Source of the DNA: a virus
Taxonomy: Duplodnaviria; Caudoviricetes
IMG/VR virus record: IMGVR_UViG_3300028048_000056
Location: 1-64,000 of that record
Strand: one strand, 5' to 3'
Length of the DNA stretch: 64,000 bases
Position numbers and translations under genes: made by a program. The notes under the pieces were generated by a model. It did no database searches. It was not told where the DNA came from and saw only the letters and a program-made list of their open reading frames with translations. Positions 8,592 to 60,536 of the stretch are shown piece after piece; position 1 is the first letter of the stretch, and every line of letters begins with the position of its first letter.

Positions 8592-8673
8592 ACTTATAAT
8601 AGGTTGAATACAAGAATACAGTCAGCATTTCAAGAAGGGGTGCTGACTGTATCTAGAAAAGGAGGAATTTTCT

Positions 8674-19258: not shown

Positions 19259-19828
19259 GTGCCTAATTTAGATAAGATTTTGGCAATGGATGCGCAGTAT
19301 CGTAAGGAATATCCTAGAACGTATAATGCGAAAGATATGCTGCTCAGAGGACACCTTACTGCAGAAGAGTTCGACTGCGTGACGAAAGGAGAAGCTATGG
19401 AAAAGTATATAGACAACAACCCCGAAGCTGCTGGTGAGAAGAAAGGTATAATTCTAACCGGTATCGCACCCGCACCAAAAACCGAAACAGATAAGCTCGT
19501 TGAACAAGCTGAAGAATACATCGGTCAGGCAATCCAAGCATGGGTTCCTAGACAGCTTGACCATGTGGTTGTTCGCGCTGCTGTCAGAGATAAGCCGAGG
19601 CTTGATGACCCCAACCGCATCAGACTGCAGATTGGCTTTAAGCTGTTCAATGTTCTTGAGCAGACTGTGCAGGAGGTAGCTACCGATGTGGCAGTTGAGC
19701 GTGAAGTTCTGCACATGGATGAGCACACTGCCAAGCAATACTGGGTTATGTTCAATCAGTGTCTGGTTAATCAGCTTACTCAGATTGTCTTACAGCTAAT
19801 TCACGGTATTAAAGCGGGACAATTTTAA
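19259..19828 (+). CDS. Hypothetical protein
   Basis: AGGAGG before GTG. Confidence 0.7.
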   Translation: MPNLDKILAMDAQYRKEYPRTYNAKDMLLRGHLTAEEFDCVTKGEAMEKYIDNNPEAAGEKKGIILTGIAPAPKTETDKLVEQAEEYIGQAIQAWVPRQLDHVVVRAAVRDKPRLDDPNRIRLQIGFKLFNVLEQTVQEVATDVAVEREVLHMDEHTAKQYWVMFNQCLVNQLTQIVLQLIHGIKAGQF

Positions 19829-19893
19829 CTTCGTACTTCACGCAATTATATGTTATAATGTAGGTACAATAGAAACACATAGGAGGTGTAGAT

Positions 19894-21269: not shown

Positions 21270-21369
21270 TGTTAGTCTGATATTTAACCACAACTTCGTT
21301 TCATGGTGTGATTTGTGTTATAATAATGATACAATAAACATAAAACCGACGCAGACAAGGAGGCGTACT

Positions 21370-22597: not shown

Positions 22598-22688
22598 GAA
22601 TCCAGCATCTTCGGTTCAAAACCGAGTGCTATGTTATAATACATATACAATAAACATAAATCAAATTCTCATGTGTAGGAGGTAACAG

Positions 22689-28632: not shown

Positions 28633-28707
28633 TCGCAACTTCGTATGCGTATTGTATTCATGTTATAATATAGATACAATAAGAACAATGTGTAGGAGGT
28701 ACTGTAT

Positions 28708-30332: not shown

Positions 30333-30364
30333 GAACCCCGCCATTATGGTGGGGTTCTTATTTT
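30333..30364 (+). terminator. Intrinsic terminator
   Basis: GAACCCCGCCA/TGGTGGGGTTC plus TTATTTT. Confidence 0.85.
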
Positions 30365-31747
30365 GTAAAATGCAGACATGAATGTATATGTATTGCGACG
30401 TAGAAAAGATTCTATTGCGAACTCGAATTTCGGTAGATGTAGGTGACAAACCCGAATATCAACGGTACACCAGTATCAAGGTTAATACTGACGTTACGCA
30501 TACCAAGAGTTCACTATGGATACCCGTCTGTATCCACCAATATTCAGGTATAAAAAGACGACACTTGTCGTTGCCGACAGATGTCGTAATCAAAAGCATA
30601 GATAATCTGTGAAACGTCGTTCAAGCACACCATACTGTCGGTGGTATGTCACCCGATTTGTTTAGAATAAACAGAAGGTAATTCAGGCGTTCAAAACCGG
30701 TCCGCTTTAACCAGAGTTGCGGTAGGGATTCGAACGCCCGTTGACCATAGGTATCGATATTTTGCTTTTGTCCTAAATGCGAGTAACGACATACCACCAC
30801 TCCGAAACGGTGATTTTTGTTGACTTTCCACAAATTCATCGCTCCGATTCCGGTGGGTACGAATGGGTAGCTGGAGCGGAGAACACCGGTACCAGACACC
30901 GTCGAACTCGCACCCCAGCGATAGGAGCCGGTACTGGTAGCAAGGAGCACACGATTCCGGAGAAGAGGCACAGGAATTCGACTACCTATCATATTCTTGC
31001 TTAAAAGTTCGCCAAATCGTCTACCTGCTTCGAGTTCTGCTAGCCATCGTTTCGACACTTCGAATCCCTCCTTTCGAATTTCGAATTCCGGTCTACCGAC
31101 ACCACCGCGTTGAAACTGCTAATACCGAAGTTACCATTTCCATCTTCTGTTCCAAACCAATCGCTCTGAACAAAGAATACCGAAGTTCCCAGATGCTTGG
31201 TAGATAGAACTTCTTGTTCCCATTCTGAGTAACTAAATCAACTCTGAATGGAACTCACGAAGTTTATTTTTACTACACCTATATTATAACATATTTACAC
31301 AAATGCACGAAGTTTCGTTTTCTCATTTTCCGAAGTACCCACCTAATCTTCTTAACCCAATCACTCCAAGCAAGAAACCGAGCTCGAAGCACAGAATACC
31401 AATCCGAAACCAATCTCACCCAAATCTAATCCAGCAGAAGAACTCGAAGCTCTCGCTTGCTGACCAGGGGCGGGTACCTTCGAGTCCCCACCTGGTTCTG
31501 TGTTATTCGCGTGCGCGCACGTTCATTATAATATGCGTACCCATCCTGGGTGCTTCATAACTTCGTAACACACACCCAGCAATGTTATAATATAGATACA
31601 ATAAAACACAACACGGAACGGCAAAAGACACACTGGGTGCAGAAAACGCACAACTTCTTTTTGCGTGGGCGTGTGTGTTATAATGTAGATACAATAAAAA
31701 CAAGTCCCACTGGGACGCGACCAAAGAGTACTTAGGAGGTACAGATT

Positions 31748-32452
31748 ATGGCTAAGAAGTATAATGTTACATTCGCAAACGGCACAGAGCAGACAGTAAA
31801 CAGCAAGAAGGCAGTCAAGGCCCTCGAAGGTATCATCAAGGTTACTGTAGGCGGTCAGGACATCACCAACGAATTTGTCAAGGAGGACGAGGTTATGGCT
31901 AACAACGAGTACGTAGAGGCAATCGAAGCTATCAAAGCAGTCGAGGAAGCTCAGGCAGAGGTAGACGCAATCGAAGCTCCCGCAGGTCCTAAGGCAACAC
32001 TCCTCTTCACAGCATCTCGCGGTAACGCAAGACGCCTCGCTTGGAGACAGATAATCGTTAACCCCGAGGACGAAGTTGTCAAGGTCAAGGGTTGTGCAGC
32101 AATGCTCCCAATCCAGGTTGCCGAAGCAATCGGTAGCACCAAGTTCGTATCCTGGTTCGACCAGGAGCAGGCAGAGAAGTGCGTTGCCGAAGGTAAGCAG
32201 GTACGCGGCATGGCAAGCACATTCTCAGACGTGTTTGCTCGCTACACCAAGGTAAACGAGATTAAGGGTGCTGACAAGCTCGAAACAGTACTCGCAATCT
32301 TCAAGGGCATTCTCAACGATATCGAAGCAGGAATCACAGAAGGCGAGTGGGCAAGACCTGAGCCCGAGGTTCCCGAGGTTCCCGAGGAAGTCGAAGCTCC
32401 TGAGACAGCAGACGTAATCAGCACAGAGCTCGCAGATATCGAAGTGGCATAA
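31748..32452 (+). CDS. Early acidic protein, paralog family copy 1
   Basis: Tandem promoters; shares LLFTASRG..KFVS..VRG.AST.SDVF.RY with 37306 and 41347. Confidence 0.85.
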   Translation: MAKKYNVTFANGTEQTVNSKKAVKALEGIIKVTVGGQDITNEFVKEDEVMANNEYVEAIEAIKAVEEAQAEVDAIEAPAGPKATLLFTASRGNARRLAWRQIIVNPEDEVVKVKGCAAMLPIQVAEAIGSTKFVSWFDQEQAEKCVAEGKQVRGMASTFSDVFARYTKVNEIKGADKLETVLAIFKGILNDIEAGITEGEWARPEPEVPEVPEEVEAPETADVISTELADIEVA

Positions 32453-32487
32453 TGCCACTCCGGTAGCTCGGATAAATCAAATATCGA

Positions 32488-32520
32488 AGCAGGGCGGGCC
32501 CAATAGGGTCCGCTTTTGCT
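32488..32520 (+). terminator. Intrinsic terminator
   Basis: GCGGGCCC-AATA-GGGTCCGC plus TTTT. Confidence 0.75.
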
Positions 32521-32902
32521 AGCGGTTATCGCACTTTCGAGTTCCACCGCAGTTCTATGTTATATAACACATCTAGCAGAAGAACTCGAAGCTCCTAGAG
32601 ACCTTCAGACCAATCACCTTCGGTGATAGAACTCGAAGCTCAAGAGCTCTGATACCACCGCACGGCTGGTGATATCACACCACGCATGCTGTGGTATAAA
32701 CCACGGTTGTGCACCACATACACGTTATAAGGTAACCACGGTACCTACAGCAAAACACCAGCTTGCTGTGGCATGCGTACAGAACCCGGTCCTGTGGTAT
32801 ACCGCGCACACCGTGCTGCTGAAACTTCGTACTGCCACCTAGCGTATGTTATAATGTAGATACAGTAAACGTAAACCGGGTAACTACTTAGGAGGTAGAA
32901 TT

Positions 32903-33265
32903 ATGGATAGACAGAGACTTATGGAATACACAGATGCTAAGCGCGCAGTACCAGCATTCAACTGCGAGACCGAGCGCCAGAAGGAAGTGTTCACGAATTT
33001 CTACTATGCCGCTTGCTCACTTATCGGCGGTAACGAGAACACCTTGTACGACTACGACGAGGACGACGAAGAGTACATCAACGCAAAGCAGGTTCTCGAA
33101 GACCACGCTGGTCTGGTAGACGATGTGTTCGCTTGGGGCACTTCTGGATTCTACGGATGCGGGCTCGAAGGTCCGATGCAGCCTTACCAGAAACACTACA
33201 ACCTCGTCGGCAACGACTTCATGCGTAGATGTGCCGAAGCTATCGTAACCGCAATGGGGCACTGA
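32903..33265 (+). CDS. Early hypothetical protein
   Basis: Promoter 32823 plus RBS. Confidence 0.8.
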   Translation: MDRQRLMEYTDAKRAVPAFNCETERQKEVFTNFYYAACSLIGGNENTLYDYDEDDEEYINAKQVLEDHAGLVDDVFAWGTSGFYGCGLEGPMQPYQKHYNLVGNDFMRRCAEAIVTAMGH

Positions 33266-33354
33266 GCCCCTTGCGATGAACTTCGCAACCCCAACCCCAA
33301 TGTGTTATAATATAGGTACAATAAAAACAACCCGTGTGCTTAAGGAGGTACAAT

Positions 33355-33861
33355 ATGGATAATAAGAACAAGCAGTACAATACCGCCGCTCAGGTCCTCG
33401 AGCGTGTCGAAGAGAGAATAGCCTGGTTTGAGGACAACCCTTACAGCAGACTCCGTATCTCGGACTGCTACAACGAGTTCAGCATCTTTGACTGGTGGCC
33501 TGAGTACCTGAGCAAGTCGAAGCTCCAGGAGATGCGTCAGTTCCTCAAGGAGGCTATCAAGCTCGGCTACACCGGATATGTATGCTTCAAGGTTGGAGCT
33601 ACCGGCTGTGCTAACGGTATGTGGGCACACACCGAACTCGAAACTGACGAGGGATACAGCCCGGACAACTGCCCGATTCTGTTCCGAAGCTTCACACCAG
33701 CTTACCGTTACTGGGATGTCACCGACAAGGACGGTAACTGGGATTTCGAAGGTAAGTACAAGGACGAAGAAGACCGCCGTCAGAACTGGGACAGACTCAA
33801 AACCATCAAGAACCTCGAGGCGTTCATCGAAGCTCATAAGGATAAGGTGTACCGCAAATAA
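33355..33861 (+). CDS. Early hypothetical protein
   Basis: Promoter 33279 plus RBS. Confidence 0.8.
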   Translation: MDNKNKQYNTAAQVLERVEERIAWFEDNPYSRLRISDCYNEFSIFDWWPEYLSKSKLQEMRQFLKEAIKLGYTGYVCFKVGATGCANGMWAHTELETDEGYSPDNCPILFRSFTPAYRYWDVTDKDGNWDFEGKYKDEEDRRQNWDRLKTIKNLEAFIEAHKDKVYRK

Positions 33862-33900
33862 GCGGTACACCCTGAACTACAACCTATAGGAGATAATTGT

Positions 33901-34341
33901 ATGATAAAAATTCCGAAAGCATCAGCCGACACGAAAGAGGTTCAGATTCTGTATAAAAGGTGGTCTGTCGACAATAAAGAGCAGTATGCGACGATACCGA
34001 AGTTCTGGGATGTCGTGGAGAAGTACGTCGACTGTAGGTATCTGAAAGGATACGGTACAGACTGGTCGAGCGACGACGGAGGTGACTTCTTATACGGCAT
34101 AATCTTCGCGGACGGCAAATTAACCAAAGAAGTCATCGACGCCGTTCGGAAGGAAATCCCGGATATAAAGGTGGATTACTCGTTCCCTATACCAACGAAG
34201 TACTCAGAAACCTTCGAGGGTAACTCAGCCGGTCTCGACACTCTGTACGAGGAGATATGGAGTTCTCGTCCGTTAGCACACGAACTAGAAGAATTCTCAT
34301 CGAACGGGGATTGCAAGATTCACGTTATCTATAAAAGATAA
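33901..34341 (+). CDS. GyrI-like effector-binding domain protein (tentative)
   Basis: IPKFWD..F.YGI..LYEEIW..ELEEF..C.IHV pattern. Confidence 0.5.
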   Translation: MIKIPKASADTKEVQILYKRWSVDNKEQYATIPKFWDVVEKYVDCRYLKGYGTDWSSDDGGDFLYGIIFADGKLTKEVIDAVRKEIPDIKVDYSFPIPTKYSETFEGNSAGLDTLYEEIWSSRPLAHELEEFSSNGDCKIHVIYKR

Positions 34342-34441
34342 GGGTACACACCTCACGCACAACTTCGTATATACCACCTGCATATGTTATAATATAGATA
34401 CAGTAAAACAAACAACGCCCAACTGCTTAGGAGGTAGTATT

Positions 34442-34726
34442 ATGGCAAAGATTACAAAGACACAGGCTGCAACCAAAATCGAGCGTTACCTGGAACTCCA
34501 GGCACTCATCAAGGAGGCATCGAAGGAGGCAGACGCTCTCAAGGCAGAGCTCAAGAAGCTTGCCGAAGCTAACGAGTCCCGTACCTACATCGTGGACGAC
34601 CACGCAGTAACCGTTACAACCGCAACTCGTAACACCGTAGACGCGAAGGCACTCGCAGCTGCACACCCGAAGATTGCGGAGAAGTTCACCAAGAAGTCTA
34701 CATACGACACAGTCCGCATCAAATGA
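34442..34726 (+). CDS. Early hypothetical coiled-coil protein
   Basis: Promoter 34361 plus RBS. Confidence 0.8.
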   Translation: MAKITKTQAATKIERYLELQALIKEASKEADALKAELKKLAEANESRTYIVDDHAVTVTTATRNTVDAKALAAAHPKIAEKFTKKSTYDTVRIK

Positions 34727-34766
34727 TGCGGACTCATTCCAAATCGAACTTCAAGGAGGTCTAACT

Positions 34767-35060
34767 ATGCGTTATAAGGTATTCTACGGAGCAGATCCTA
34801 CCGATTATGCGGTGTGCTACGGTGCTACCGAAAAAGAAGCTCAGCATCAATTTAGTCAGTACAACCCACGTAAGGCAATCATGCGCGTCGAAGAATTCCC
34901 AGATGCTACGGAACCTGATACAAACTTGCTCGACCTGATTGGTGAGGCAGACCCGGAAGAAGCAATCCGATATCTCATCGATGCTATCGAAGACGCTGGT
35001 GTAACACACCGTGTTGCCGGTTATCTCTACCGGTACGGGTTCGGCAGAGAGGACGGATAA
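34767..35060 (+). CDS. Early hypothetical protein
   Basis: AAGGAGGT RBS. Confidence 0.7.
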   Translation: MRYKVFYGADPTDYAVCYGATEKEAQHQFSQYNPRKAIMRVEEFPDATEPDTNLLDLIGEADPEEAIRYLIDAIEDAGVTHRVAGYLYRYGFGREDG

Positions 35061-35262
35061 TCACGACACCGCATGCTGCAGTTGCTTGGATGTTGCGTGT
35101 AAAAGTTATAAAGCAACTGCAGCAAAAACGCTGCATTTGGTACGTGATTTCGGTACTCTGCGTATGAACTCGAAGACAGAAACTTCGTTTCTACGCCCTG
35201 GATTGTGTTATACTATAGATACAGTAAACACAACACCAGTTCATATATAGGAGGTACAGCAC

Positions 35263-35961
35263 ATGGCTGAGTTCTGGACTATTACCCAGAAGGGTTTTAA
35301 TTTCATCCGTCACAACGCCGATAAGCTCGTCGAGGACGAGGAATGGAGTATCGAACGTGTTGCTGCATTCATGGCAGTACACCACACACTCAACGTCATG
35401 GCAACCAGGTACGCCAAGGGGCTCACGCTAAGGCCGAAGATTGCGTGTATCCAGTACACATTAAAATGCGACCCTCAGACTTCAGCTGACCTGGACAAGC
35501 TCACCAAAGTGCTGGTACCGAAGCTCTGTGCTTATTACAACTCACCCGACACTCAGGGCTACCTGGGCAGACCACTCAATCTTGTGCTCGACGATGTTGT
35601 CAAGCTCGCACAGGATTATATTGCCAAGGAAGAAGCTCCATTCGAAGTATTCGGAAAAACAGTCACACCTCCTCCCTTCTACTCCAGACCATCGAAGCAA
35701 GAGTACGACGCTATTCAGGAGCGTGAACAGAACCAGGAGAAAGCCTACTGGGACAAGTTCAAGCAGGCACTCGAAACTGGTACCGCAATGCATCACAAGA
35801 TTTTGATTCGTGAGGGTGCCAATACCTACACCGGTATCATCGTCGGGGTAACTGCTCGCTGTGTCTACGTCGACCTTAAGGACGAGTATGGCAGACTTCT
35901 GCAAAGCAATGCACGACTGCCCCGTAATTCACCGAGGTTCATTATCGAATCCTTCAGATAA
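35263..35961 (+). CDS. Early hypothetical protein
   Basis: Promoter 35181 plus RBS. Confidence 0.8.
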   Translation: MAEFWTITQKGFNFIRHNADKLVEDEEWSIERVAAFMAVHHTLNVMATRYAKGLTLRPKIACIQYTLKCDPQTSADLDKLTKVLVPKLCAYYNSPDTQGYLGRPLNLVLDDVVKLAQDYIAKEEAPFEVFGKTVTPPPFYSRPSKQEYDAIQEREQNQEKAYWDKFKQALETGTAMHHKILIREGANTYTGIIVGVTARCVYVDLKDEYGRLLQSNARLPRNSPRFIIESFR

Positions 35962-35991
35962 TTTCTTATCTCCTAAGCTCACATATACCGA

Positions 35992-36017
35992 AGCAGGCGC
36001 CTACGGGCGTCTGTTTT
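35992..36017 (+). terminator. Intrinsic terminator
   Basis: GCAGGCGCC-TACG-GGCGTCTGT plus TTT. Confidence 0.75.
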
Positions 36018-36105
36018 GGCGGTTAGAGAATTAAAAATTATATACAAGTGTTCACTACTGTGCGTAGGCATTTTCGTGTATTCATACGAAATTGTAGAAA
36101 AAGTC

Positions 36106-36134
36106 TTGACTTCTGAGCGCCTATACATTATAAT
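36106..36134 (+). promoter_or_regulatory. Canonical SigA-type promoter
   Basis: TTGACT-N17-TATAAT. Confidence 0.75.
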
Positions 36135-36140
36135 GATTAT

Positions 36141-36262
36141 AGTAGCAACAACTACTAACCCCCAACCTTGACGACTGTTCCACATCGAATAGAAAATGCG
36201 TAAAGCTCACACGGGTAGCGAAACCCATCGAAGTACAGACCCTCACTTCGGTGGGTTTTGTT
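36141..36262 (+). ncRNA. Candidate small RNA
   Basis: Between canonical promoter and CAC-TTCG-GTG terminator; no RBS or ORF. Confidence 0.5.
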
Positions 36263-36844
36263 GTGGTTTTCCGGTGAATTTGTGTAAATCGTACAAAGCA
36301 TTCCTACTCGAAGCTCCCGCTTTCGTATAGGATTTTTAATTCGCAAGAAATGTTTACCTCACAATATAATATATGTTCGCCGGCTTCGCTTCGACTACGC
36401 CTACCGATACACATTCTGTCTATCGTACCTTTCACTTCGTTTTCGGGGTCGAACATATATCCTCTCCAGGCACCAGGCCATCAGGCTATTCGCCTATGTC
36501 TTCGAGTCCTTCACTTCGTTGCGGTGCTGTCCTGGTGCCCTCTGTCTTCGACAACCCCCACCTTTACCGCCTGTTCCACAACTGTCTGCGACGCATTGCC
36601 CTGCGGGCGGCTTTATAGTTATATACGATTCTTATACCGCATACACCGCCATGCCGCAAGCATACCACACGCACGCTACACGCAAAGCGAGGTACTACAC
36701 CTCAGGCGTATAACTATACATCTGCACAACCACATCGCACACACCAGCATGCGTGGTGTTTAAGAAATTCGGAACCACGCCTTGGATATGTTATAATATA
36801 GATACAGTAAACACAACAACAGAAACACAAAGGAGGTGTAGTGT

Positions 36845-37204
36845 ATGACCGATAAGGAACAGGCTTTAGCAGACCTGACTATTAAACTCTATAAAGAAAA
36901 CGACCTGGAATACGCAGAACGTACTATAGCACACGATGCTAATTGGCGTGACCTTATATGCCGCGTAACCATTAGGTCTGAGATACATTTCTGGCACATC
37001 AACGCCGAAAATATTAAGGAGGACTATGGGATAGACATACATAGCTTCTCGAAGGCGTCCTTAGCACGTGTAGCTGGTGTAACTACTGTCATTATTAACA
37101 ATATGGTAGACACGCTGGTTCAGAAATACAGACCTGGCAAGAAGGCGAAGAGAATGCCAATCTGGGAGGAACCTGCAGAGCCAATACCTGACAAGGGTAG
37201 GTAA
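36845..37204 (+). CDS. Early hypothetical protein
   Basis: Promoter 36765 plus RBS. Confidence 0.8.
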   Translation: MTDKEQALADLTIKLYKENDLEYAERTIAHDANWRDLICRVTIRSEIHFWHINAENIKEDYGIDIHSFSKASLARVAGVTTVIINNMVDTLVQKYRPGKKAKRMPIWEEPAEPIPDKGR

Positions 37205-37305
37205 TTAACTTCGGATGTAACACCCGAGTGTGTTATAATATAGGTACAGTAAAACAAACAACGCCCAACAGGGCAACGATTAAGAGTACTTAGGAGGTAC
37301 ATATT

Positions 37306-37869
37306 ATGGCTAAGAAGAATGTTAAGAACACAGAGGCAACCGTAGAAGTTATCAAGGAGGATGTTACCATGGCAGAGAACACAAAGGCTATCGAGAACGC
37401 AGAAGCAACCGCAATCGAAGAGGCAGGCCCCAAGACCATGCTCCTGTTCACAGCATCACGTGGCAAGAACACAAGGTTCGCTTGGAACGAAGTTGTTGTC
37501 AACCCCGACGATGCTACACAGAAGGTTAAGGGCTGCGCAATCGAGCTTCCTACTAAGGTCGCAGAGCTCATCGGAAACGACAAGTTTGTTTCCTACATCG
37601 ACAAGGACATAATCGCACGCTGTGTCGAAGAGCAGAAGGCAGTACGTGGTACAGCAAGCACAGTATCAGACGTATTCACACGTTACTGCAAGGTAACAGA
37701 TACCAAGGGTGACCGCATAGCAGTAGCGCTCGCAGTATTCGGCGAAGTCCTCGCAGCAATCGAAGCAGGTAACACCAACGGTGAGTGGGTACGCCCTGAG
37801 CCTGAGAAGGCAGAAGAGCCTGAGGCTCTTGAGATAGAGGAAATCGAAGCTCCCGTAGAGGAGGGCTAA
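37306..37869 (+). CDS. Early acidic protein, paralog family copy 2
   Basis: Promoter 37207; clear similarity to 31748. Confidence 0.85.
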   Translation: MAKKNVKNTEATVEVIKEDVTMAENTKAIENAEATAIEEAGPKTMLLFTASRGKNTRFAWNEVVVNPDDATQKVKGCAIELPTKVAELIGNDKFVSYIDKDIIARCVEEQKAVRGTASTVSDVFTRYCKVTDTKGDRIAVALAVFGEVLAAIEAGNTNGEWVRPEPEKAEEPEALEIEEIEAPVEEG

Positions 37870-37976
37870 CAACCAGCAAGGGTAGGGGCCGCAAGGTCCC
37901 GCCCCACATGAAAATTCGTAATTCCGCTCAGCATCCTGTATAATATAGGTACAATAAAACACAAGGAGGATACAGT

Positions 37977-38162
37977 ATGTAGAAGCAGGATTTAGAGGCA
38001 TTACTCAAGGCGTGGCCTGAGAACATACTCATCAAGAAGCTCGAAGCTGTCTACGGAGGAATCGCAATCACAGACACTTCTGAGAACCACTGGTTTTACG
38101 ACCACAACGAAGGAACCCTGAACAAGAAGGGTCCTTGGAAGAAAGGAGCACAGCATGCTTAA
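37977..38162 (+). pseudogene. ORF with TAG at codon 2
   Basis: Promoter and AAGGAGG, then ATG-TAG followed by 59 open codons. Confidence 0.6.
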
Positions 38163-38364
38163 GGAAGCTAAGAAAGACGAAGCATACGAAGAGGTCTACA
38201 AGAAGATGCGAGAGTACGCTGACAACAGAGACTACGATTTGTTTGACTCGGAAATCTGGACTATAATCGAAGAGGCCGAGGAGGAAGGAGACAGCGTACT
38301 GGACTGTGCCGACGGGGCGCTCAGAGAGCTCGTCGAAGACTGGGTTGCTGACCACCAGGAATAA
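38155..38364 (+). CDS. Small acidic protein
   Basis: GAAAGGAG RBS; terminator follows. Confidence 0.75.
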   Translation: MLKEAKKDEAYEEVYKKMREYADNRDYDLFDSEIWTIIEEAEEEGDSVLDCADGALRELVEDWVADHQE

Positions 38365-38731
38365 GCAAAGCAAGGGCTCGAAAGAGCCTTTGTTCTTTCA
38401 ACTATCACAATTCGAGTCCCGCCAGCATCTGTGATTGAGAAATAGAAGACGCTCAGCAGAAGAACTCGAAGCTCCTAGGAGCTACCAGTGCCACCGCTAC
38501 TGCGAAAGCACCACCTCGCAAACCGTGGTATACCACGTGGTTATGCACGGTGTACACTTATACTACCATATAAAAGAACCCACAGCATGCGTTAGCGTGC
38601 TGTGTATTTTTTATGGTGTTCACCGCACCGGTGCAACCACGGTCACGGTTTTAACGGTGTGCGACAACTTCGGAATGCTACGCTGAAAGTGTTATAATGT
38701 AGGTACAATAAAGCACAAGGAGGTCATGGGT

Positions 38732-38986
38732 ATGGCACAGAACGACATTAAGCAGCTCTGCCAGTTCAACAATGCGAAGGAAGCAGCTCGCATCCTGTAC
38801 GAAGAGGAAGGCTGGGACGGAGCAGACGAGGGTGCAACCGTTACGCAGCTTCAGGTCGACTACGACCTCACTCAGGAAGAAGCCGAAGAGGTGTTCTCCT
38901 ACATCATCAGCTACGAGGAAGAAGACGGTGTCGAGCGCGACGAGTTCGGCAATGTTATCGAAGAGGGAGATGGCTGGATATGTTAA
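38732..38986 (+). CDS. Small very acidic protein
   Basis: Promoter 38666 plus RBS. Confidence 0.75.
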   Translation: MAQNDIKQLCQFNNAKEAARILYEEEGWDGADEGATVTQLQVDYDLTQEEAEEVFSYIISYEEEDGVERDEFGNVIEEGDGWIC

Positions 38987-39363
38987 AGATTATCAGAGAG
39001 CGTAGCACGCATACCGAAGTAGAGCACTATGTCGAGTTCACCGACGGAGGAGGTGGTGGCTTCAGCTTCCCTTGTGACTCGAATGGCAACATTCAGTTCA
39101 ATGACGACATTCCCGAACTGGGTAAGGCACAGCGTGACAACTACGACTACGCTATGTCGCACAAGGAGCGGTTCACCTGTCAGTATGCTCAGTTCGTAAC
39201 TCGAAAGTATACCGTGACGGATAATGCCGTTGGCAGATGTGTCTGCGGAGAAGAAGTCGAATTGTACGACCAGTACCAGGGTGCTTGTTCGTGTCCGAAG
39301 TGCGGTCAGTGGTACAATATGTTCGGTCAGTCACTCGTAGACCCTGAGTACTGGGAGGACTGA
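38980..39363 (+). CDS. Zn-ribbon protein
   Basis: CVCG..CPKCGQWYN. Confidence 0.7.
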   Translation: MLKIIRERSTHTEVEHYVEFTDGGGGGFSFPCDSNGNIQFNDDIPELGKAQRDNYDYAMSHKERFTCQYAQFVTRKYTVTDNAVGRCVCGEEVELYDQYQGACSCPKCGQWYNMFGQSLVDPEYWED

Positions 39364-39429
39364 GATAACTTCGCATCTTCAGCCTAGATGTGTTATAATA
39401 TAGGTACAATAAAACACGGAGGTGTTCTT

Positions 39430-39651
39430 ATGGCAAATAAGATAGAAGTGTTCACCGAGAATTACGAAGAGGTGTACGGACGTAAGCCAAGAGGCAAAGG
39501 CACCTGGGCATTTTTCATTGTGTCTAGCAGAGGTACAGATTTCAACGAACCTATCATCAAGCATGGCACATATTCCGAAGCTCGTGATGCTGCCATCAGA
39601 GAAGCACGCAGTCAGGTAGGAGGGTTCCTGGGTCTTATCGTAGGTACATAA
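39430..39651 (+). CDS. Early hypothetical protein
   Basis: Promoter 39367 plus RBS; stop overlaps next promoter. Confidence 0.75.
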   Translation: MANKIEVFTENYEEVYGRKPRGKGTWAFFIVSSRGTDFNEPIIKHGTYSEARDAAIREARSQVGGFLGLIVGT

Positions 39652-39726
39652 CTTCGTAACCGTAACCACGAATCATGTATAATTAAGATACAATAAAACA
39701 AGTCCCAGATACTTAGGAGGTATAAT

Positions 39727-40026
39727 ATGGATAAGATTTATCTGGAGCAGGTTCTAGAGCAGTTCGTGGACAAGGCGAATGTCATCATCCAGACTCGGGA
39801 TTCCGACTACGCACCTACCTACTGCCTGGGCAATCATTATGCCGCTAGATGGCGGTTCGTCCTGGAGCACAAGTTCCCCGCTGAGCAGTTCGGTGTGCTG
39901 GACGTTACGTCGGAGGTCAAAGGCGGTACCCTGATGTGGGTAATCACGATCGACCGAGCTCGTGATAGAATCACCGACCGGCTGAGCGAGCAGGCGAATT
40001 GCCTTATCTCGGGACTGGATTTCTGA
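39727..40026 (+). CDS. Early hypothetical protein
   Basis: Promoter 39650 plus RBS. Confidence 0.75.
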   Translation: MDKIYLEQVLEQFVDKANVIIQTRDSDYAPTYCLGNHYAARWRFVLEHKFPAEQFGVLDVTSEVKGGTLMWVITIDRARDRITDRLSEQANCLISGLDF

Positions 40027-40038
40027 TAGGAGGTTGCT

Positions 40039-40245
40039 ATGCGAAATTTCACTTTCAGATACACATTACGCAACGGGCAGACAGGGAGCGGTCAGATTTC
40101 CGCTCCGAGTCGTGACGCTGTCGGCATGCTGGCAAGAGAGCGATTCCAGTTGCATGACGATGTTCGCATTTACGAAGTAAAGGAGGTAGTCGATGAAAGC
40201 GAGAATACAGACAGTGGAGCAGCTGAAGCAGGTAGCGTCAGCTAA
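40039..40245 (+). CDS. Hypothetical protein
   Basis: AGGAGG RBS. Confidence 0.65.
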   Translation: MRNFTFRYTLRNGQTGSGQISAPSRDAVGMLARERFQLHDDVRIYEVKEVVDESENTDSGAAEAGSVS

Positions 40246-40528
40246 GCTCCAAGATGAGTTCAACCGGCGTTATCAGGAAGCAACACTCGAAGGTGCAGTC
40301 CAGGGAATGGCATTCGTGATGTACGCACTCGAGATGGGGCAGGGCTGGAAGAAGAGCAGACAGCAGAAACTGTTCGAAAATATGATGGGGCTGTGCGATA
40401 TACCAGAATCCGCACCTTGGCTCAATCCTTACAACGCACTGGACATTAGGAAGCATATCGAAACTGAGTTCGGTATCGATTTTTCAAAATTACTCAATCG
40501 TGTCGAAGCATTGCCGCCAGACGAATAA
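40193..40528 (+). CDS. Hypothetical protein
   Basis: AAGGAGG RBS. Confidence 0.7.
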   Translation: MKARIQTVEQLKQVASAKLQDEFNRRYQEATLEGAVQGMAFVMYALEMGQGWKKSRQQKLFENMMGLCDIPESAPWLNPYNALDIRKHIETEFGIDFSKLLNRVEALPPDE

Positions 40529-40552
40529 ATAGCGCGGCGAAAGGAGATAAAT

Positions 40553-40828
40553 ATGGCACAGAACTTAAAATCCAACCGGGTGTACCGGTTATGGGAATCT
40601 ACTCAGGATATACTCGAATTCACACGCTGGTTACCAGAGGTAGTTGGTACAGAGAGGGAGCTTCGACGTATCGGTTCAATCCCGGTAGCACAAATCCCAC
40701 AAGAAGAGAGCAGAGTTGCTGCTGATGTCGAAATGATACAACCCGTTCGATTTAAGGATGCTGATGTAACCAAGTACCGCAATCTGCTGGCATTCTTCAG
40801 ACGTCGTCACGGCAGGTGGGCACGCTGA
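40553..40828 (+). CDS. Hypothetical protein
   Basis: GAAAGGAG RBS. Confidence 0.7.
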   Translation: MAQNLKSNRVYRLWESTQDILEFTRWLPEVVGTERELRRIGSIPVAQIPQEESRVAADVEMIQPVRFKDADVTKYRNLLAFFRRRHGRWAR

Positions 40829-40894
40829 AACTTCGTACTGCTGCCCTGGGTGTGTTATAATAATGGTACAATAAAACACAAGGAGGAACAGACC

Positions 40895-41260
40895 ATGGGT
40901 GAGATACAGAAGTCAGATATGCAGTTGAAGACCTTCTTTGAGAAATCAATGGGGTTTGTAATACGGAAGGCCGTTTACAACCGGGGTACATTAACCTACT
41001 ATATGTACGACCGACAGCAGGGTAAAGCTATTCTGTTCGAACAGCGTCCCGACACGTCAATGTCGTGTACGATGGAAGGAGTAACTCGAAACATCCCAGC
41101 AAGGGATGCGTTGGAGACAGCTCTGGGTCACAAACCGACACAACTCGAAATCTGCCGCATCGTTCAGGAAGTCATTCTTAAGATGATTGACGACCAGCTG
41201 GACGAAACGAAGCGACAGGTTGGCAGAGATTTTGACCGGTTCAGCAGAAGAGGTCACTGA
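40895..41260 (+). CDS. Early hypothetical protein
   Basis: Promoter 40829 plus RBS. Confidence 0.75.
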   Translation: MGEIQKSDMQLKTFFEKSMGFVIRKAVYNRGTLTYYMYDRQQGKAILFEQRPDTSMSCTMEGVTRNIPARDALETALGHKPTQLEICRIVQEVILKMIDDQLDETKRQVGRDFDRFSRRGH

Positions 41261-41346
41261 TGTAGGAACTTCGTAAACGACACCAGCGTGTGTTATAATG
41301 TAAGCACAATAAAACACAAACCGATAAGGTATAGGAGGAAAAGATT

Positions 41347-42006
41347 ATGGCAAACGAGAATATGGTTCAGAACGCAGAGGCTATCAACAAGACTGTTATC
41401 GTTAAGGAGGATGCTACTATGGCAAACGAGAAGGTTATCACAGAGGCAATCGAGACTACCGAGACACCTGCAGTAACACTGCCGAAGTTCAACGACGTAA
41501 TCATTCCGGCAGATGAGGACAGAGAGATGCTGCTCATCACCGCAACTCGCAACAAGAACGACGCTATGTTCTGGAACTACATTACAGTTCCGGCAGGCAC
41601 CGACCCTAGGGAGTTCATCAAGACAGTCACCGAGAACAAGTTTGTCAACCTCGTCGATGCTCGTAACGTCAGAGCATTCATCGAAGCAGGTGCTCCGCTC
41701 AGAGGAATGGCAAGCACAATCGCAGACTTCGCAGCTCGTTACGCTAAGACAAAGGGCGAAGTAACCGATAAGGCAGCGCTCGTACTCAGAGAGTTCACAG
41801 ACATCATTGCTCAGGTTGATGCTGGCACACTCGAGGGCAGATGGGACAACCCTGAGGCAATTGCCAAAGCCGAAGCAAAGGCAAAGGAAGAGGCTGACAA
41901 GGCAGCAGCAAAGGCTGCTAAGGAAGCCGAGAAGGCAGCAAAGAAAGCAGCAGCCGAAGCTCCTACAGAGGACGAGGTTGAGGACCCGTTCGATGTAGCA
42001 GAGTAA
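41347..42006 (+). CDS. Early protein, paralog family copy 3 (Ala/Lys/Glu-rich tail)
   Basis: LLITATR..KFVN..LRGMASTIADF.ARY; promoter 41267. Confidence 0.8.
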   Translation: MANENMVQNAEAINKTVIVKEDATMANEKVITEAIETTETPAVTLPKFNDVIIPADEDREMLLITATRNKNDAMFWNYITVPAGTDPREFIKTVTENKFVNLVDARNVRAFIEAGAPLRGMASTIADFAARYAKTKGEVTDKAALVLREFTDIIAQVDAGTLEGRWDNPEAIAKAEAKAKEEADKAAAKAAKEAEKAAKKAAAEAPTEDEVEDPFDVAE

Positions 42007-42039
42007 TCTAACCAACACTCGACCTCCTAAGTCGAAGTC

Positions 42040-42070
42040 AAGAGCCCTGGGCGATGAGCCTGGGGCTCTT
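42040..42070 (+). terminator. Terminator-like hairpin
   Basis: AAGAGCCCTGGGC/GCCTGGGGCTCTT. Confidence 0.65.
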
Positions 42071-42169
42071 GCTGCGGTATCATGGTTCTGGAAACTTCGT
42101 GATGCTGGTGTAGGTGTGTTATAATATAGATACAATAAAACAAGTCCTAGACCATAAGGAGGAAACGGT

Positions 42170-42502
42170 ATGGATAAGAATAGAATGACCTGGAACGAAG
42201 CAGTTCAGTACCTCACCGAGTTCAACAAGAAGCACAACATCACAACCAAGGGTGGTAAGCCCGCTACGTGCGTGATGGTCGCAGTTATCTCGAAGGACAG
42301 CTTCCGTAAGAAGTATACCTTAAAGGAGCGTAGCTATGCGTTCACAAACCACAATAAATTCTTCATTCCTGAGAACCTCGGTAACTCAATCTTTGCCGAT
42401 TGCCTGGATGGCACAGATGTAGGCATACGCCTTGAGCAGCACATACGCACTCTTGATTGGAATGTCGAATACTGCTACATCAAGGAAGAGCGAGAGGAAT
42501 AA
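42170..42502 (+). CDS. Early hypothetical protein
   Basis: Promoter 42093 plus RBS. Confidence 0.8.
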   Translation: MDKNRMTWNEAVQYLTEFNKKHNITTKGGKPATCVMVAVISKDSFRKKYTLKERSYAFTNHNKFFIPENLGNSIFADCLDGTDVGIRLEQHIRTLDWNVEYCYIKEEREE

Positions 42503-42579
42503 CTTCGTACTCGCACCTGCAGTATGTTATAATGTAGATACAATAGAACACAACCCAGAGCGTAGAGGAGGGCTTATAT

Positions 42580-42843
42580 ATGGCACAGAAGAAAGAGTAC
42601 ACCGTTATATGTCACCACAGAGGAAGAGCAACCGAGTACACAGGTACTCTGGAGCACCTCATTAACGACGTGTTCGGCTACACACTCGAAAGCGGCGCGT
42701 CCTGGCAGTACGAGAAAGGTTCTCGCAAGGTTAACACCAATCCGAAGTCCGGCAAGGGTCTTGTAACCGCCCTTAACAACGCAGCATACAACACCATGGG
42801 TTCTTGCTATAACCCGGACTGGTACGAGTTAAAGGAGGGATAA
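42580..42843 (+). CDS. Early hypothetical protein
   Basis: Promoter 42501 plus RBS. Confidence 0.8.
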   Translation: MAQKKEYTVICHHRGRATEYTGTLEHLINDVFGYTLESGASWQYEKGSRKVNTNPKSGKGLVTALNNAAYNTMGSCYNPDWYELKEG

Positions 42844-42845
42844 TT

Positions 42846-43331
42846 ATGCCACATGGCTATCAGTGGAGTCACGAAGACTACCGAAACGCCGAGCGAGCTG
42901 CTAAGATACAGGCTCAGGCGATAGCCGAAGCTCAGCGTAAGGAGCGTGAGAGACAGGAGAAGGAAGACCAGAGACGGAAGTTAGAAGAGTCTCTCCGCTA
43001 TCATCCTTCAACACCGTACACCCCTAAACCCTCAGCACCCCTGAGCCCTTGTGACAAAGAGCGTGCTAAAGAACAATCTGCTAAGCGTGTTCGTACCAAC
43101 GTCGCAAAGATGCGTGCAGAGAAGGCGATGGCTGCTAACTTCGGCAGTGCTGATTATATCCACAACCGCTACGGACACGCTGTCTGGCTTGGCAAGATAA
43201 CCGAGTACCGCAACAAGTTCGGCTGTTCAGAGGAAGAAGCAGTCACCTTGATGGTCAGAGACTATAAGGAGTCCGAGTGGACTCACCTGGAGGACCCGCT
43301 CATCGAGAAGTTCATGGGTCACCGTAAGTAA
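42846..43331 (+). CDS. Hypothetical protein
   Basis: AAGGAGG RBS. Confidence 0.75.
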   Translation: MPHGYQWSHEDYRNAERAAKIQAQAIAEAQRKERERQEKEDQRRKLEESLRYHPSTPYTPKPSAPLSPCDKERAKEQSAKRVRTNVAKMRAEKAMAANFGSADYIHNRYGHAVWLGKITEYRNKFGCSEEEAVTLMVRDYKESEWTHLEDPLIEKFMGHRK

Positions 43332-43572
43332 GGTCACAGCAAGCTAACGCATACACCGCGGTAGCTCACGGTGTGTAATTATACTACCATATGGTATACC
43401 TCAAGCAGAACCTTAGCAAAACCACAGCAGATTAAAGGCGCACCACACCGGTACGCCTTTAGTTACGGTTTGAATTGGTAACTCCAAAATTCGGAATGCT
43501 ACTCCAGATATGTTATAATATAGGTACAGTAAAACAAACAACGGAAAGCAAAGAGCTTAGGAGGAATAGATT

Positions 43573-43644
43573 ATGGCAATAGCAATTCTGGTAGCAGCAA
43601 TCATTATGGCACCGGCACTCCTTTACACCAAGGAGTCTTACTAA
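43573..43644 (+). CDS. 23-aa hydrophobic peptide (absent from ORF track)
   Basis: Promoter 43487, TAGGAGG RBS; MAIAILVAAIIMAPALLYTKESY. Confidence 0.6.
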   Translation: MAIAILVAAIIMAPALLYTKESY

Positions 43645-43662
43645 TCCAGGAGGTAGATAGAG

Positions 43663-43833
43663 ATGGAGAGAACAAGACGATTCAGATGGGATAGACTGGC
43701 ACTGTGCGTGTACATGGCTTGCAACCTGGCATTCGTTGCTTGGGTAGCGTTGTCATACTTCAACATCGTGCTGCACAACACCGAAGCAAACCCGGCATAC
43801 TTTACCTGGAACTTTTTCACGGTTCTGTTCTAA
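43663..43833 (+). CDS. 56-aa membrane protein (absent from ORF track)
   Basis: AGGAGGT RBS; basic N-terminus then TM segment. Confidence 0.65.
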   Translation: MERTRRFRWDRLALCVYMACNLAFVAWVALSYFNIVLHNTEANPAYFTWNFFTVLF

Positions 43834-44010
43834 GTTCCAGAACTTCGTAATACACCAGTAGGTGTGTTATAATATAGGTACAATAAAACATGGAGCGGAT
43901 GAGACGGGTGCATCGTAGCGTAGGTCACTTCAACCACACCCCGAGTTCTCGCAATAGTGGGGGCAATGCTCACCGCTCCGGACGACTTGGGAGCCGAGAG
44001 GAGGGTTCTT

Positions 44011-44142
44011 ATGCTGAGAATGGAGTACATCGACCGACAGGGTACATACCGAATCTACAGAATGGATTCACCGAACACAACCGTAGCATACGAGACCGAC
44101 TACTACAAGGCATTAGCAATCGTTAGACAGGGCTGGCGTTAA
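44011..44142 (+). CDS. 43-aa hypothetical protein
   Basis: GAGGAGG RBS after a structured leader. Confidence 0.6.
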   Translation: MLRMEYIDRQGTYRIYRMDSPNTTVAYETDYYKALAIVRQGWR

Positions 44143-44230
44143 GTCAGTCCTTTGAATAACTTCGTGAGTAATACCGCTATGTGTTATAATATAGATACAA
44201 TAAAACAAGTCCTAGACAAGGAGGTAGCGT

Positions 44231-44431
44231 ATGGGTACTGTTCTTAAGACAAAGGAGCAGAAGCTTCAGCTTTACAGAGCGGTTAAATATGAGGTAGAGG
44301 AGTTCGCTGCTGACTGTGGGTACACACTCGCACAGCTTTGGGCAAAGATTCACGAGAACACAGAGTCCGGTAGGTTCTGGCGCAGGACAGTGTGTATAGA
44401 CTATGGTCAGTATCTGAGAGCGTCGAAATAA
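44231..44431 (+). CDS. Early hypothetical protein
   Basis: Promoter 44158 plus RBS. Confidence 0.75.
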   Translation: MGTVLKTKEQKLQLYRAVKYEVEEFAADCGYTLAQLWAKIHENTESGRFWRRTVCIDYGQYLRASK

Positions 44432-44456
44432 GACGCTCTCCAAAGGAGGTATAGGT

Positions 44457-44891
44457 ATGGAAAAGTTCATCGAATATCTTAAGGCAAGAGCTTATGCCCT
44501 GGCAACCAAGGAGCTTGACAGTGAGGCAAACAGCTTTGGGTTCTCAAGACGTGTTCCAGAAATCGCACGGGCAATCGAAGACGCACAGGCAGGTGAGGAA
44601 GCCTACAACTTCAGCGTAGCTTTCGTGCTGGCAATGGCACAGCGTTACCCAGACGGTCGAGACGAGAAGAGCATTGGGTTGGCAAAGCAGCTCATCGCTT
44701 CTGGCTTGGGACTCGAAGAGGGACAGGAAGGAATCCTCAAGGAGGTAAGCCTGAGAGTAGTCAGAGGATCGATGCACCCCACGGTAATGCAGCAGGCAGC
44801 ACAGCTTGCATTCTACATCTTGGACTCGAACGGTGCGGTACCAGAGGAGCTCAAGGAAGACAGTGCTTGGTGGAGGATGCCACTTATCTGA
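44457..44891 (+). CDS. Hypothetical protein
   Basis: AAGGAGGT RBS. Confidence 0.75.
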   Translation: MEKFIEYLKARAYALATKELDSEANSFGFSRRVPEIARAIEDAQAGEEAYNFSVAFVLAMAQRYPDGRDEKSIGLAKQLIASGLGLEEGQEGILKEVSLRVVRGSMHPTVMQQAAQLAFYILDSNGAVPEELKEDSAWWRMPLI

Positions 44892-44990
44892 GCGGCACTC
44901 CAAACTTCGTAGCAGTACCTCAGGTGTGTTATAATAGTGGTACAATAAACAAGTTCACAATCCACAACCTGTAACCTTAGGAGGTACATT

Positions 44991-45377
44991 ATGGCTACTT
45001 TCAATTACAATCCTGTTCAGCTCATGGACCGCATCATTTCGTTCCACGGCCTGGTTGGCAACGAAGGCACCCTGTACGACACTGCTAAGTCCAACATCAA
45101 CACTCAGGTCGGCGTCAATGCGTTCTGGGAGTTCCGCAAGTCCGTTGCCAAGCGTCTGTACCGCATCACCGAAGCAGAAGCTCAGCTCTGGTACATCGCT
45201 CAGACTAACCTCAACACCGAGACTGGGTACGTCGCTTACTACGCACTCGAAAAGTCCATTACCCGTCGTCACGGTGACGATGCTGTGCTGTGCGACCTCG
45301 CCCCGAACTTTGCGTGGGACGACCGGCTTGCGGATGCGTGGTACAACCTCCAGGCCCTGGACACCAACCCGGCATGA
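44991..45377 (+). CDS. Early hypothetical protein
   Basis: Promoter 44903 plus RBS. Confidence 0.8.
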   Translation: MATFNYNPVQLMDRIISFHGLVGNEGTLYDTAKSNINTQVGVNAFWEFRKSVAKRLYRITEAEAQLWYIAQTNLNTETGYVAYYALEKSITRRHGDDAVLCDLAPNFAWDDRLADAWYNLQALDTNPA

Positions 45378-45415
45378 GTCGGGCATAGGTTCTGTAAAAT
45401 CTCACATAGCAGCAC

Positions 45416-45484
45416 AACGCACGCTAACGGTAACCATATACAGGCATACAAGTATATGCCTAGCAGGGACCGTTAGCGTGCGTT
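45416..45484. repeat. 16-bp perfect inverted repeat hairpin
   Basis: AACGCACGCTAACGGT / ACCGTTAGCGTGCGTT with inner AGGCATA/TATGCCT. Confidence 0.85.
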
Positions 45485-45804
45485 AGCATGCGTGTTGTGG
45501 GTATATGCAGCGTGTAGCTGCACTTTCGTGCAGGCTGTAGGAGCTTCGAGTGTATGTGCTAGCTATGTTATATAACACATCTAGCAGCAGATACCGAAGT
45601 TTCAACCGGATATGTCCCAGCAAAACCGCCCGAAAATTACGGTTTCGAAATACCTTTCAACGGTATTCCGATACTACGGTACCGCATTTTACGTTTTTCC
45701 ACCAGCACCCCCTTCGCCAAAAATCCCAGACATCAGCAAACACCGCAATCTCCTTGCTCCCCGCTCTCATGTTCGTGTACCCAGACATCAGCACTCGCCT
45801 TCCT

Positions 45805-45837
45805 CCCGATGTTCCCAGCTCCCAGCTCCCGACTCCC
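45805..45837 (-). repeat. Heptamer-like CCC repeat with G-quadruplex motif on the minus strand
   Basis: Minus strand GGGAGTCGGGAGCTGGGAGCTGGG. Confidence 0.7.
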
Positions 45838-46045
45838 GATTCCAGCATCCAGCTCCCCACACCCAGCTAACCAGCAAACGCCTTCGCGTCCAGGTTCCCG
45901 GCTCCCGATTTCAGAATTTCCCGGTTTCCCAGCAGCACAGATTCTGCACAAAATCCTAGACATCACACAATACCGCAACTTCGTTACTCACACCGCAATG
46001 TGTTATAATATAGGTACAGTAAACGTAAATCAAGGAGGTAATCTC

Positions 46046-59309: not shown

Positions 59310-59387
59310 CGGTACATAACTTCGTTTCAAATACCTCCTATGTGTTATAATATGAGTATAACGATAACACATAGGAGGTGTTTCTGT

Positions 59388-60443: not shown

Positions 60444-60536
60444 TCATAGCACTAAAGACGGTGTGGGTTACTTCGATGCACACCGTCTTTTGTGTTATAA
60501 TATAGATACAATAATTTACACAAGGAGGTCACACAT

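Follow-up and report, generated by a model that had tools for sequence, protein, structure and literature searches.

A stereotyped, putatively early promoter module with a conserved AACTTCG box in the -35 register in a clade of large uncultured phages

The IMG/VR virus record IMGVR_UViG_3300028048_000056 is a single contig of 162,085 bp (referred to here as W), and its first 64 kb form the window of this study. It contains a repeated module of about 50 bp, which consists of an AACTTCG(T)A box, a gap of 20-21 nt, the extended -10 element TRTGTTATAAT and the downstream block ATAGRTACARTAAAACA. Judged from its geometry and conservation, this module is a real and lineage-wide class of promoters. 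In our reading, it is probably the stereotyped, host-sigma-dependent extended -10 early promoter of an uncultured clade of virulent phages of about 150-165 kb, with a weaker form at replication genes and with an AACTTCG box in the -35 register that is likely contacted by a protein. The phages of this clade have Firmicute-type translation signals. Stereotyped early promoters are known in T4-type, T5, T1-like and SPO1-like phages, so that the kind of promoter is familiar and the new element is the box together with its presumed reader.

Sequence, geometry and genes behind the module

AACTTCG occurs 47 times in the window, compared to an expectation of 7.7, and the combination AACTTCG-N18-22-TATAAT is found 29 times there and not once in 100 shuffled sequences. 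In a blind k-mer count, TGTTATAAT was the most over-represented 9-mer of the whole genome (39 copies, 16.6 times the expectation). Scanning the 162,085 bp with a two-block position weight matrix (PWM), with thresholds applied to both blocks, yielded 49 good modules; downstream blocks with a score of at least 15 numbered 46 in the real genome and one in a shuffled genome. The motif is therefore strand-specific and far above chance, and 46 of the 49 modules have the same orientation as the adjacent genes. An earlier reading of the stretch, made from the sequence only, had counted about 38 copies in the window, 21 of them in an array of small open reading frames (ORFs) and none in the first 12 kb. 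The PWM scan agrees: it gives 37 copies, to which a weak one at 12202 can be added, places exactly 21 of them at 31559-46030 and leaves 1-12 kb empty.

Copies aligned on the -10 element resolve into four parts, namely an information-rich AACTTCG(T)A box, an uninformative spacer, the string T-R-T-G-T-TATAAT and a conserved 17-nt block ATAGRTACARTAAAACA. The box covers about -39 to -31 and is centered about -35/-36. Its distance to TATAAT in the 49 copies is 20 nt (n = 32), 21 nt (n = 16) or 19 nt (n = 1), in line with the fixed 20 ± 1 nt given before. Next to the box, the columns of T-R-T-G-T-TATAAT are the best conserved, with matches in 32 to 39 of 39 copies and R being G in 19 of 39. Conservation beyond the -10 had been put at about 15 nt and extends over 17 nt, a block that includes a second -10-like hexamer, TACART. 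Start codons follow the -10 at a median of 50 nt (30-75 nt in 40 of the 49 copies). Stop codons noted as overlapping or abutting the box at 19826, 39649, 40826, 42500 and 51407 all match ORF ends, and the longer leaders ascribed to subsets of copies are likewise present, AAAACAAGTCC at 31679, 39678, 42120 and 44185 and AAAACAAACAACG at 34388, 37234 and 43514.

These units had been described as self-contained gene cassettes. Here the modules stood up, and their self-containment was overstated: only two terminator-like sites are present on the + strand in 30-47 kb, and the 21 array modules head about 28 ORFs. With so few terminators between them, the units amount to a stack of promoters and not to insulated cassettes. 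Canonical TTGACA-17-TATAAT promoters show no enrichment in 30-47 kb, with 23 copies where 19.2 are expected. Folding of the modules gave a mean hairpin z-score of -0.53, with z < -2 in 8 of the 49 copies and clear terminator-type hairpins only at the copies at 49711, 51408 and 60469.

The modules head tRNA, tRNA-like and non-coding RNA genes as well as ORFs. Among the genes behind them are a sigma operon, DNA ligase and many ORFans without family matches, and a homologue of the Thoeris anti-defense protein Tad3 lies in the same early block (25436-26173; Pfam PF25185, E 2.5e-26). This set of sigma factor, anti-Thoeris protein, tRNAs and numerous ORFans fits an early role in host takeover. Weaker copies, with box and -10 and a divergent downstream block, precede replication-side and nucleotide-metabolism operons. 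Structural genes carry instead a box-less motif TATAAT(A/GT)AGR, which is conserved in the relatives. In the form TATAATAG(R), the box-less motif was observed at 8595, 10199, 10268, 27681, 62284 and 63977 of the window and at 78817 of the genome, upstream of structural and other genes, and it reads TATAATGTAG in distant relatives. It likely represents a later promoter class, possibly read by a conserved second phage sigma factor (136195-136809).

Conservation among related phages

Pattern searches in IMG/VR recovered a clade of contigs of 135-167 kb that are 65-88% identical to W. The proposed PWM scan of genome and relatives was thus complemented by strict module matches in five related phages, with 22-39 copies each and none for a reversed control pattern. 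When TGnTATAAT served as the only anchor, box and downstream block were recovered from W as well as from seven relatives. Between orthologous copies, the box is 98-100% identical. In comparisons of W with the distant relatives G005 and G002, the box has an identity of 0.98, followed by the extended -10 (0.90) and the downstream block (0.84), with spacer and upstream flank far behind at 0.47 and 0.34. In two contigs that are still further removed, box, 20/21-nt gap and TGTTATAAT are retained and the downstream block is different (e.g. ATACTTGTAAACAAA).

From these values, the box appears at least as constrained as the -10 and under strong purifying selection in a strict -35 register. Such conservation, in a register no looser than that between a -35 and a -10, speaks for stereospecific contact by a protein and not for a passively inherited repeat; a sequence-specific reader of the box probably exists. 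The module is specific to this phage lineage: a pattern search of 185,579 cellular genomes gave no match to the full module, and no prophage form was seen. The catalogued phage collection returned no match by megablast, blastn or tblastn, nor did a ligase-based search for the host.

Proposed mode of action and competing explanations

TRTGnTATAAT corresponds to the Gram-positive -16 region plus the -10, which the principal sigma factor recognizes through its regions 3 and 2. Conservation of T-R-T-G-T-TATAAT fits a group-1 sigma with region 3, and this part of the module would be recognized by the host core RNA polymerase with its principal sigma; genes for T7-like or multisubunit RNA polymerases are absent from the phage genome. 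Geometry and conservation agree with the Firmicute-type extended -10 promoter suggested by the sequence-only reading. Extended -10 promoters work without a -35 (PMC3950348). AACTTCG(T)A would take the place of TTGACA at 20-21 nt from the -10 and would most likely be in contact with a protein that recognizes this sequence and is positioned against the polymerase. Such a protein might come from the phage, as an early or injected factor, or might be an activator of the host. As a result, the phage promoters would be freed from normal -35 recognition. The 17-nt block ATAGRTACARTAAAACA may comprise discriminator, start site and initial transcribed sequence, and stacked promoters on the same strand with few terminators would let transcription accumulate over the small ORFan and anti-defense genes. 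Host-sigma use, early timing and the existence and nature of a box reader are what we infer from this analysis. A more specific proposal, in which a factor not described so far docks at AACTTCG and substitutes for -35 recognition by host sigma, similar to sigma appropriation or class II activation, is possible and put forward tentatively. If it were true, about 50 promoters could escape a phage-imposed shut-off of host -35-dependent transcription.

Candidates for the reader can be sought in the phage itself, which has two sigma genes, 18438 and 136195, both coding for about 200 amino acids. It is highly improbable that either the early or the conserved sigma reads the whole module. In the early sigma, which shows regions 2 and 4 and no others, region 2 is most similar to SigA and to sigmas of the SigF/G type, and the conserved sigma accompanies the box in all five box-bearing relatives searched. 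However, both proteins are too short for region 3, which reads TRTG, and this argues against either of them. The early sigma gene, which itself sits behind a module, is precisely deleted in G002 (100% complete, 39 strict modules), where the next gene begins 22 nt after the gene of a PemK-like protein, and it is frameshifted in G004 (32 strict modules; region L137:4542-5426, with the G002 counterpart on L131). It is present, adjacent to the PemK-like gene, in G006, a complete phage of 148.7 kb without AACTTCG promoters or any stereotyped promoter repeat. For the conserved sigma, the box-less TATAAT(A/GT)AGR motif at structural genes would be the natural target. The PemK-like protein with a C-terminal helix-turn-helix (PemK-HTH, 17573) is kept in every relative including the distant, module-free G006, so that a role as box-specific reader is unsupported; in its structure prediction, only a C-terminal three-helix bundle folds confidently. 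Of the regulon switch postulated earlier, the idea of a reader is thus reasonable in view of the purifying selection on the box, and of the two readers named for it, sigma 18438 is rejected and PemK-HTH is not supported.

MotA (PF09158) and AsiA (PF09010) are absent from the genome, and Pfam and PHROG scans of 20 conserved early proteins revealed no DNA-binding candidate; a host activator is possible. A set of 34 conserved early proteins occurs in all four complete relatives and is missing from G006. Reading by an ECF sigma, suggested by AAC at -35, was rejected owing to the lack of a CGT-type -10 at 16-17 nt and to the resemblance of region 2 of the phage sigma to groups 1 and 3. A resemblance to loxP, likewise dismissed, consists of a single 9-nt match to the Cre-binding arm ATAACTTCGTATA, with no inverted 13-bp arms around an 8-bp spacer, and no tyrosine recombinase gene (PF00589) was found in the genome. 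The Spo0A box TGTCGAA (reverse TTCGACA) has only TTCG in common with the module box.

Several points weigh against the preferred reading of the module as a host-sigma early promoter with a protein-bound box. Host sigma usage and timing are deduced from the logic of the sequence, and the poor match of AACTTCG to TTGACA was judged from general knowledge and not from promoters of the host itself. None of the candidates tried (sigmas, PemK-HTH, MotA/AsiA, early proteins) emerged as reader of the box. The second sigma was detected in every relative with the box and not in G006, where the box is missing, a co-occurrence that is weak because G006 shares only 33 of 226 proteins with W. As the box also stands before replication and nucleotide-metabolism operons, "early" may in fact be "early plus middle".

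Other explanations keep the promoter and assign a different role to the box. The principal sigma of the host could read AACTTCG directly via region 4 as an unusual -35, without any extra factor, due to an atypical host sigma or to a putative 7-deazaguanine modification of the phage DNA that alters region 4 contacts. The register of 20-21 nt is as tight as a normal -35/-10 spacer, the promoters must fire on injected DNA before phage proteins are made, and the box contains TTCGTA at 18-bp spacing with three of the six positions of TTGACA. Yet the third-position G of TTGACA is displaced and the conserved AAC lies outside the normal hexamer, while a near-canonical TTGACT-17-TATAAT in the array suggests that the host reads normal -35 boxes, and G006 shares several genes of the putative DNA-modification region but lacks the box. 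Direct reading is thus rather unlikely. With respect to a link between box and DNA modification, a Pfam search for TGT gave no match in any relative, which has no bearing on that link either way. Alternatively, AACTTCG might be the operator of a phage repressor that closes early promoters at a later switch, with the extended -10 alone providing activity. This would be compatible with the dispensability of a -35 in extended -10 promoters (PMC3950348) and with CTTCG-type words that, without a -10, cluster like protein-binding arrays in non-coding tracts of the array (31.0-31.5, 32.3-32.6, 36.2-36.5 and 38.0-38.3 kb; 6-8 per 300 bp against a mean of 0.79). A repressor, however, needs only to overlap the promoter, and the near-invariant 20/21-nt register points to stereospecific contact with the polymerase. 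Moreover, the clusters include several variant words (GAGCTTCGA), and some words may represent UUCG loops of RNA hairpins, so that the clusters would fit protein binding or could reflect RNA structure. We consider an operator unlikely.

A further possibility is that the module is primarily a mobile regulatory cassette, with recombination between copies shuffling the ORFs, as in the promoter-early stem-loop (PeSL) elements of the T4-type phages RB49 and phi1. PeSLs are present as about 50 near-identical early promoters per genome in hyper-variable ORFan regions, butted between an upstream stop codon and a downstream ribosome site; they have a host sigma-70 consensus -35, a defining stem-loop terminator, proven recombination points and mini-circles (PMC2839356; PMC4122927). 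Number, butted position and a few copies with a stem-loop overlapping the -35 position are shared by our module, which is dense in a hyper-variable array (14.5 kb of ORFans with 21 modules; gene retention of 0.5-0.75 in the early region against 0.90 in 64-162 kb). The -10 is also shared, but AACTTCG stands in place of the -35, and most copies lack a significant hairpin, as the mean z-score shows, terminator hairpins around the box being confined to a minority. The sequence-only reading had proposed the module as a homology anchor for gain, loss and shuffling of cassettes and suggested looking for gene-content breakpoints inside the motif. We compared W with four complete relatives, whose 65-88% identity is too low for exact joints. 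Chaining left 119 gaps with 238 homology-break ends in 12-64 kb, of which 24% lie within 40 nt of a module compared to 9% of random positions; the respective values for the array are 43% and 18%. Among non-intragenic break ends, 57% in the array fall at modules, where modules account for 48% of such bases and are carried by 68% of junctions, and in 12-64 kb the share is 35% against 26-33%. Since these shares match the expectation from gene junctions, breaks appear to track junctions, and modules add nothing measurable at this level of identity; breakpoints at a repeated promoter are expected from gene-junction bias alone, which calls for caution in general.

Gene retention is 0.72-0.75 in the module-dense array and 0.51 in the module-poor early block at 46-64 kb, and amounts to 0.66 for module-headed genes against 0.60 for other early genes. 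All seven relatives compared have the cassettes of the array (31.6-46 kb) in collinear order; a reversed order was seen for the gene pair 28708/29076, just upstream of the array, in G004. In 62 of 79 orthologue pairs, gene and module have remained together (17 losses, 13 gains), and spacers are orthologously conserved. ORF 36845 is absent from three of the four complete relatives and from two partial contigs. Relatives without it keep both flanking modules and not the single hybrid expected from recombination between modules, and two of them have three tandem gene-less modules at this place. Together with the unrelated ORFs 39727, 42170 and 44231, which share module and leader, such tandem gene-less copies are the only traces that modules can spread. 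At the resolution of this comparison, the module as an anchor of gain, loss and shuffling is not supported; the likeness to PeSLs is one of layout only, and a primarily mobile cassette is quite unlikely.

Among other known systems, the middle promoters of T4 combine a MotA box at about -30 with a sigma-70 -10 and are read via AsiA/MotA sigma appropriation (PMC7403470). Our module resembles them in having a phage-specific box in place of the -35 at a fixed distance to a host-type -10. It differs in the sequence of the box, in its center at about -35/-36 instead of -30, in the lack of a MotA or AsiA homologue and in a promoter class that includes what must be the first-expressed genes. Early promoters of SPO1 differ from the module in having canonical -35 and -10 elements. 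This large Firmicute phage starts with host sigma-A and uses its own sigmas for later classes, and its host-takeover module, similar to the present array, groups small early genes that have strong promoters and ribosome sites (PMC6873191; PMC13401047). The present phage is without detectable similarity to catalogued phages in its DNA or terminase region. Thermus phage P23-45, with its protein gp39, also has promoters with TG plus -10 and no canonical -35, a design that lets the phage disable host -35-dependent transcription without harm to its own (PMC3950348). In contrast to the module with its strongly conserved box, these promoters are described without a discernible element at -35 (PMC3950348). 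No gp39-like protein was found, although no search was aimed at gp39.

The clade offers a clean example of a -35 hexamer exchanged genome-wide for a highly constrained word, with the host-type extended -10 retained. Should a dedicated reader exist, it would give Gram-positive phages a novel means of keeping their own transcription apart from that of the host. In practice, the motif is a precise tool to annotate transcription units and early regions in abundant uncultured phages of rumen and gut.

Module copies and further observations in and around the array

Table 1. Module copies and related features in the window
Feature	Position	Strand	Remark
Module (weak downstream block)	13235..13285	+	heads tRNA-Leu 13354
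Module (-10 TATACT)	13837..13887	+	heads ORF 13908
Module	16171..16220	+	heads tRNA-like RNA and tRNA-Leu 16426
Module (-10 TACAAT)	17508..17557	+	heads PemK-HTH/sigma operon
Module	19827..19876	+	box overlapped by TAA stop of upstream ORF
Module	21292..21341	+	
Module, variant box CATCTTCG	22607..22657	+	
Module	28637..28686	+	
Module, sole leftward copy	31266..31314	-	drives non-coding stretch (predicted)
Module, first of tandem pair	31559..31608	+	
Module (box AACTTCT), second of tandem pair	31652..31701	+	heads ORF 31748
Module	32823..32872	+	
Module	33279..33328	+	
Module	34361..34410	+	
Module (-10 TATACT)	35181..35231	+	
Module (box AAATTCG)	36765..36814	+	heads ORF 36845
Module	37207..37256	+	
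Module (box AAATTCG)	37912..37961	+	
Module	38666..38715	+	
Module	39367..39416	+	
Module	39650..39700	+	TAA stop overlaps box
Module	40829..40878	+	TGA stop abuts box
Module	41267..41316	+	
Module	42093..42142	+	
Module	42501..42550	+	TAA stop overlaps box
Module (box AAATTCG)	43487..43536	+	
Module	43841..43890	+	
Module	44158..44207	+	
Module	44903..44952	+	
Module	45977..46026	+	heads 3.7-kb run of about 12 ORFs without further module
Module	49711..49760	+	box enclosed by terminator-type hairpin
Module	51408..51457	+	box enclosed by hairpin; TAA stop overlap at 51407
Module	54336..54386	+	
Module (weak downstream block)	55007..55057	+	
Module	59318..59368	+	
Module (box TTACTTCG)	60469..60518	+	inside 12-bp terminator hairpin; heads DNA ligase gene
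Module	63441..63491	+	
Early phage sigma, regions 2 and 4 only	18438..19028	+	tested and rejected as box reader
PemK/MazF-like protein, C-terminal three-helix HTH	17573..18460	+	candidate reader, no specific link to box
Near-canonical TTGACT-17-TATAAT promoter, single in array	36106..36134	+	contrast case

The array is preceded by a non-coding stretch of 1.2 kb (30365-31558), which begins behind a strong terminator (30333-30357). Leftward transcription from the sole reverse module is predicted for this stretch, which is rich in CGAAG/TTCGA words that the relatives conserve. A 145-aa ORF at 30621-31058 on the - strand was considered as a divergent regulator and dismissed as non-coding, with substitutions spread evenly across codon positions and in-frame stops in relatives; Rfam gave no match at 30621-31058.

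Additional repeats were noted. GAGCTTCGA (+ strand TCGAAGCTC) occurs ten times in 7 kb between 31444 and 38466 in minus-strand sense, within and between genes, where chance would give about one copy in the entire genome. The word looks like a variant form of the promoter box, and the symmetric sites at 32535-32591 and 45541-45601 have it as their outer arms. TGCGTTAGC (GCGTTAGC-R-TGCGTG) is found in 13 copies genome-wide, including 12176, 38588 and 45479 of the window, and often lies directly before a module or within a terminator-like hairpin (e.g. 38581-38604). At 68.2, 87.2, 93.3 and 113.9 kb of the genome and at 63420 of the window, promoter-like sequences that precede late and replication operons are enclosed by the inverted arms TGCTTAAATGCA ... 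TGCATTTAAGCA, which are conserved in the relatives. The array itself (31500-46000) is compositionally distinct, with a G+C content of 47-51% compared to about 44% elsewhere and a strong excess of A over T on the coding strand.

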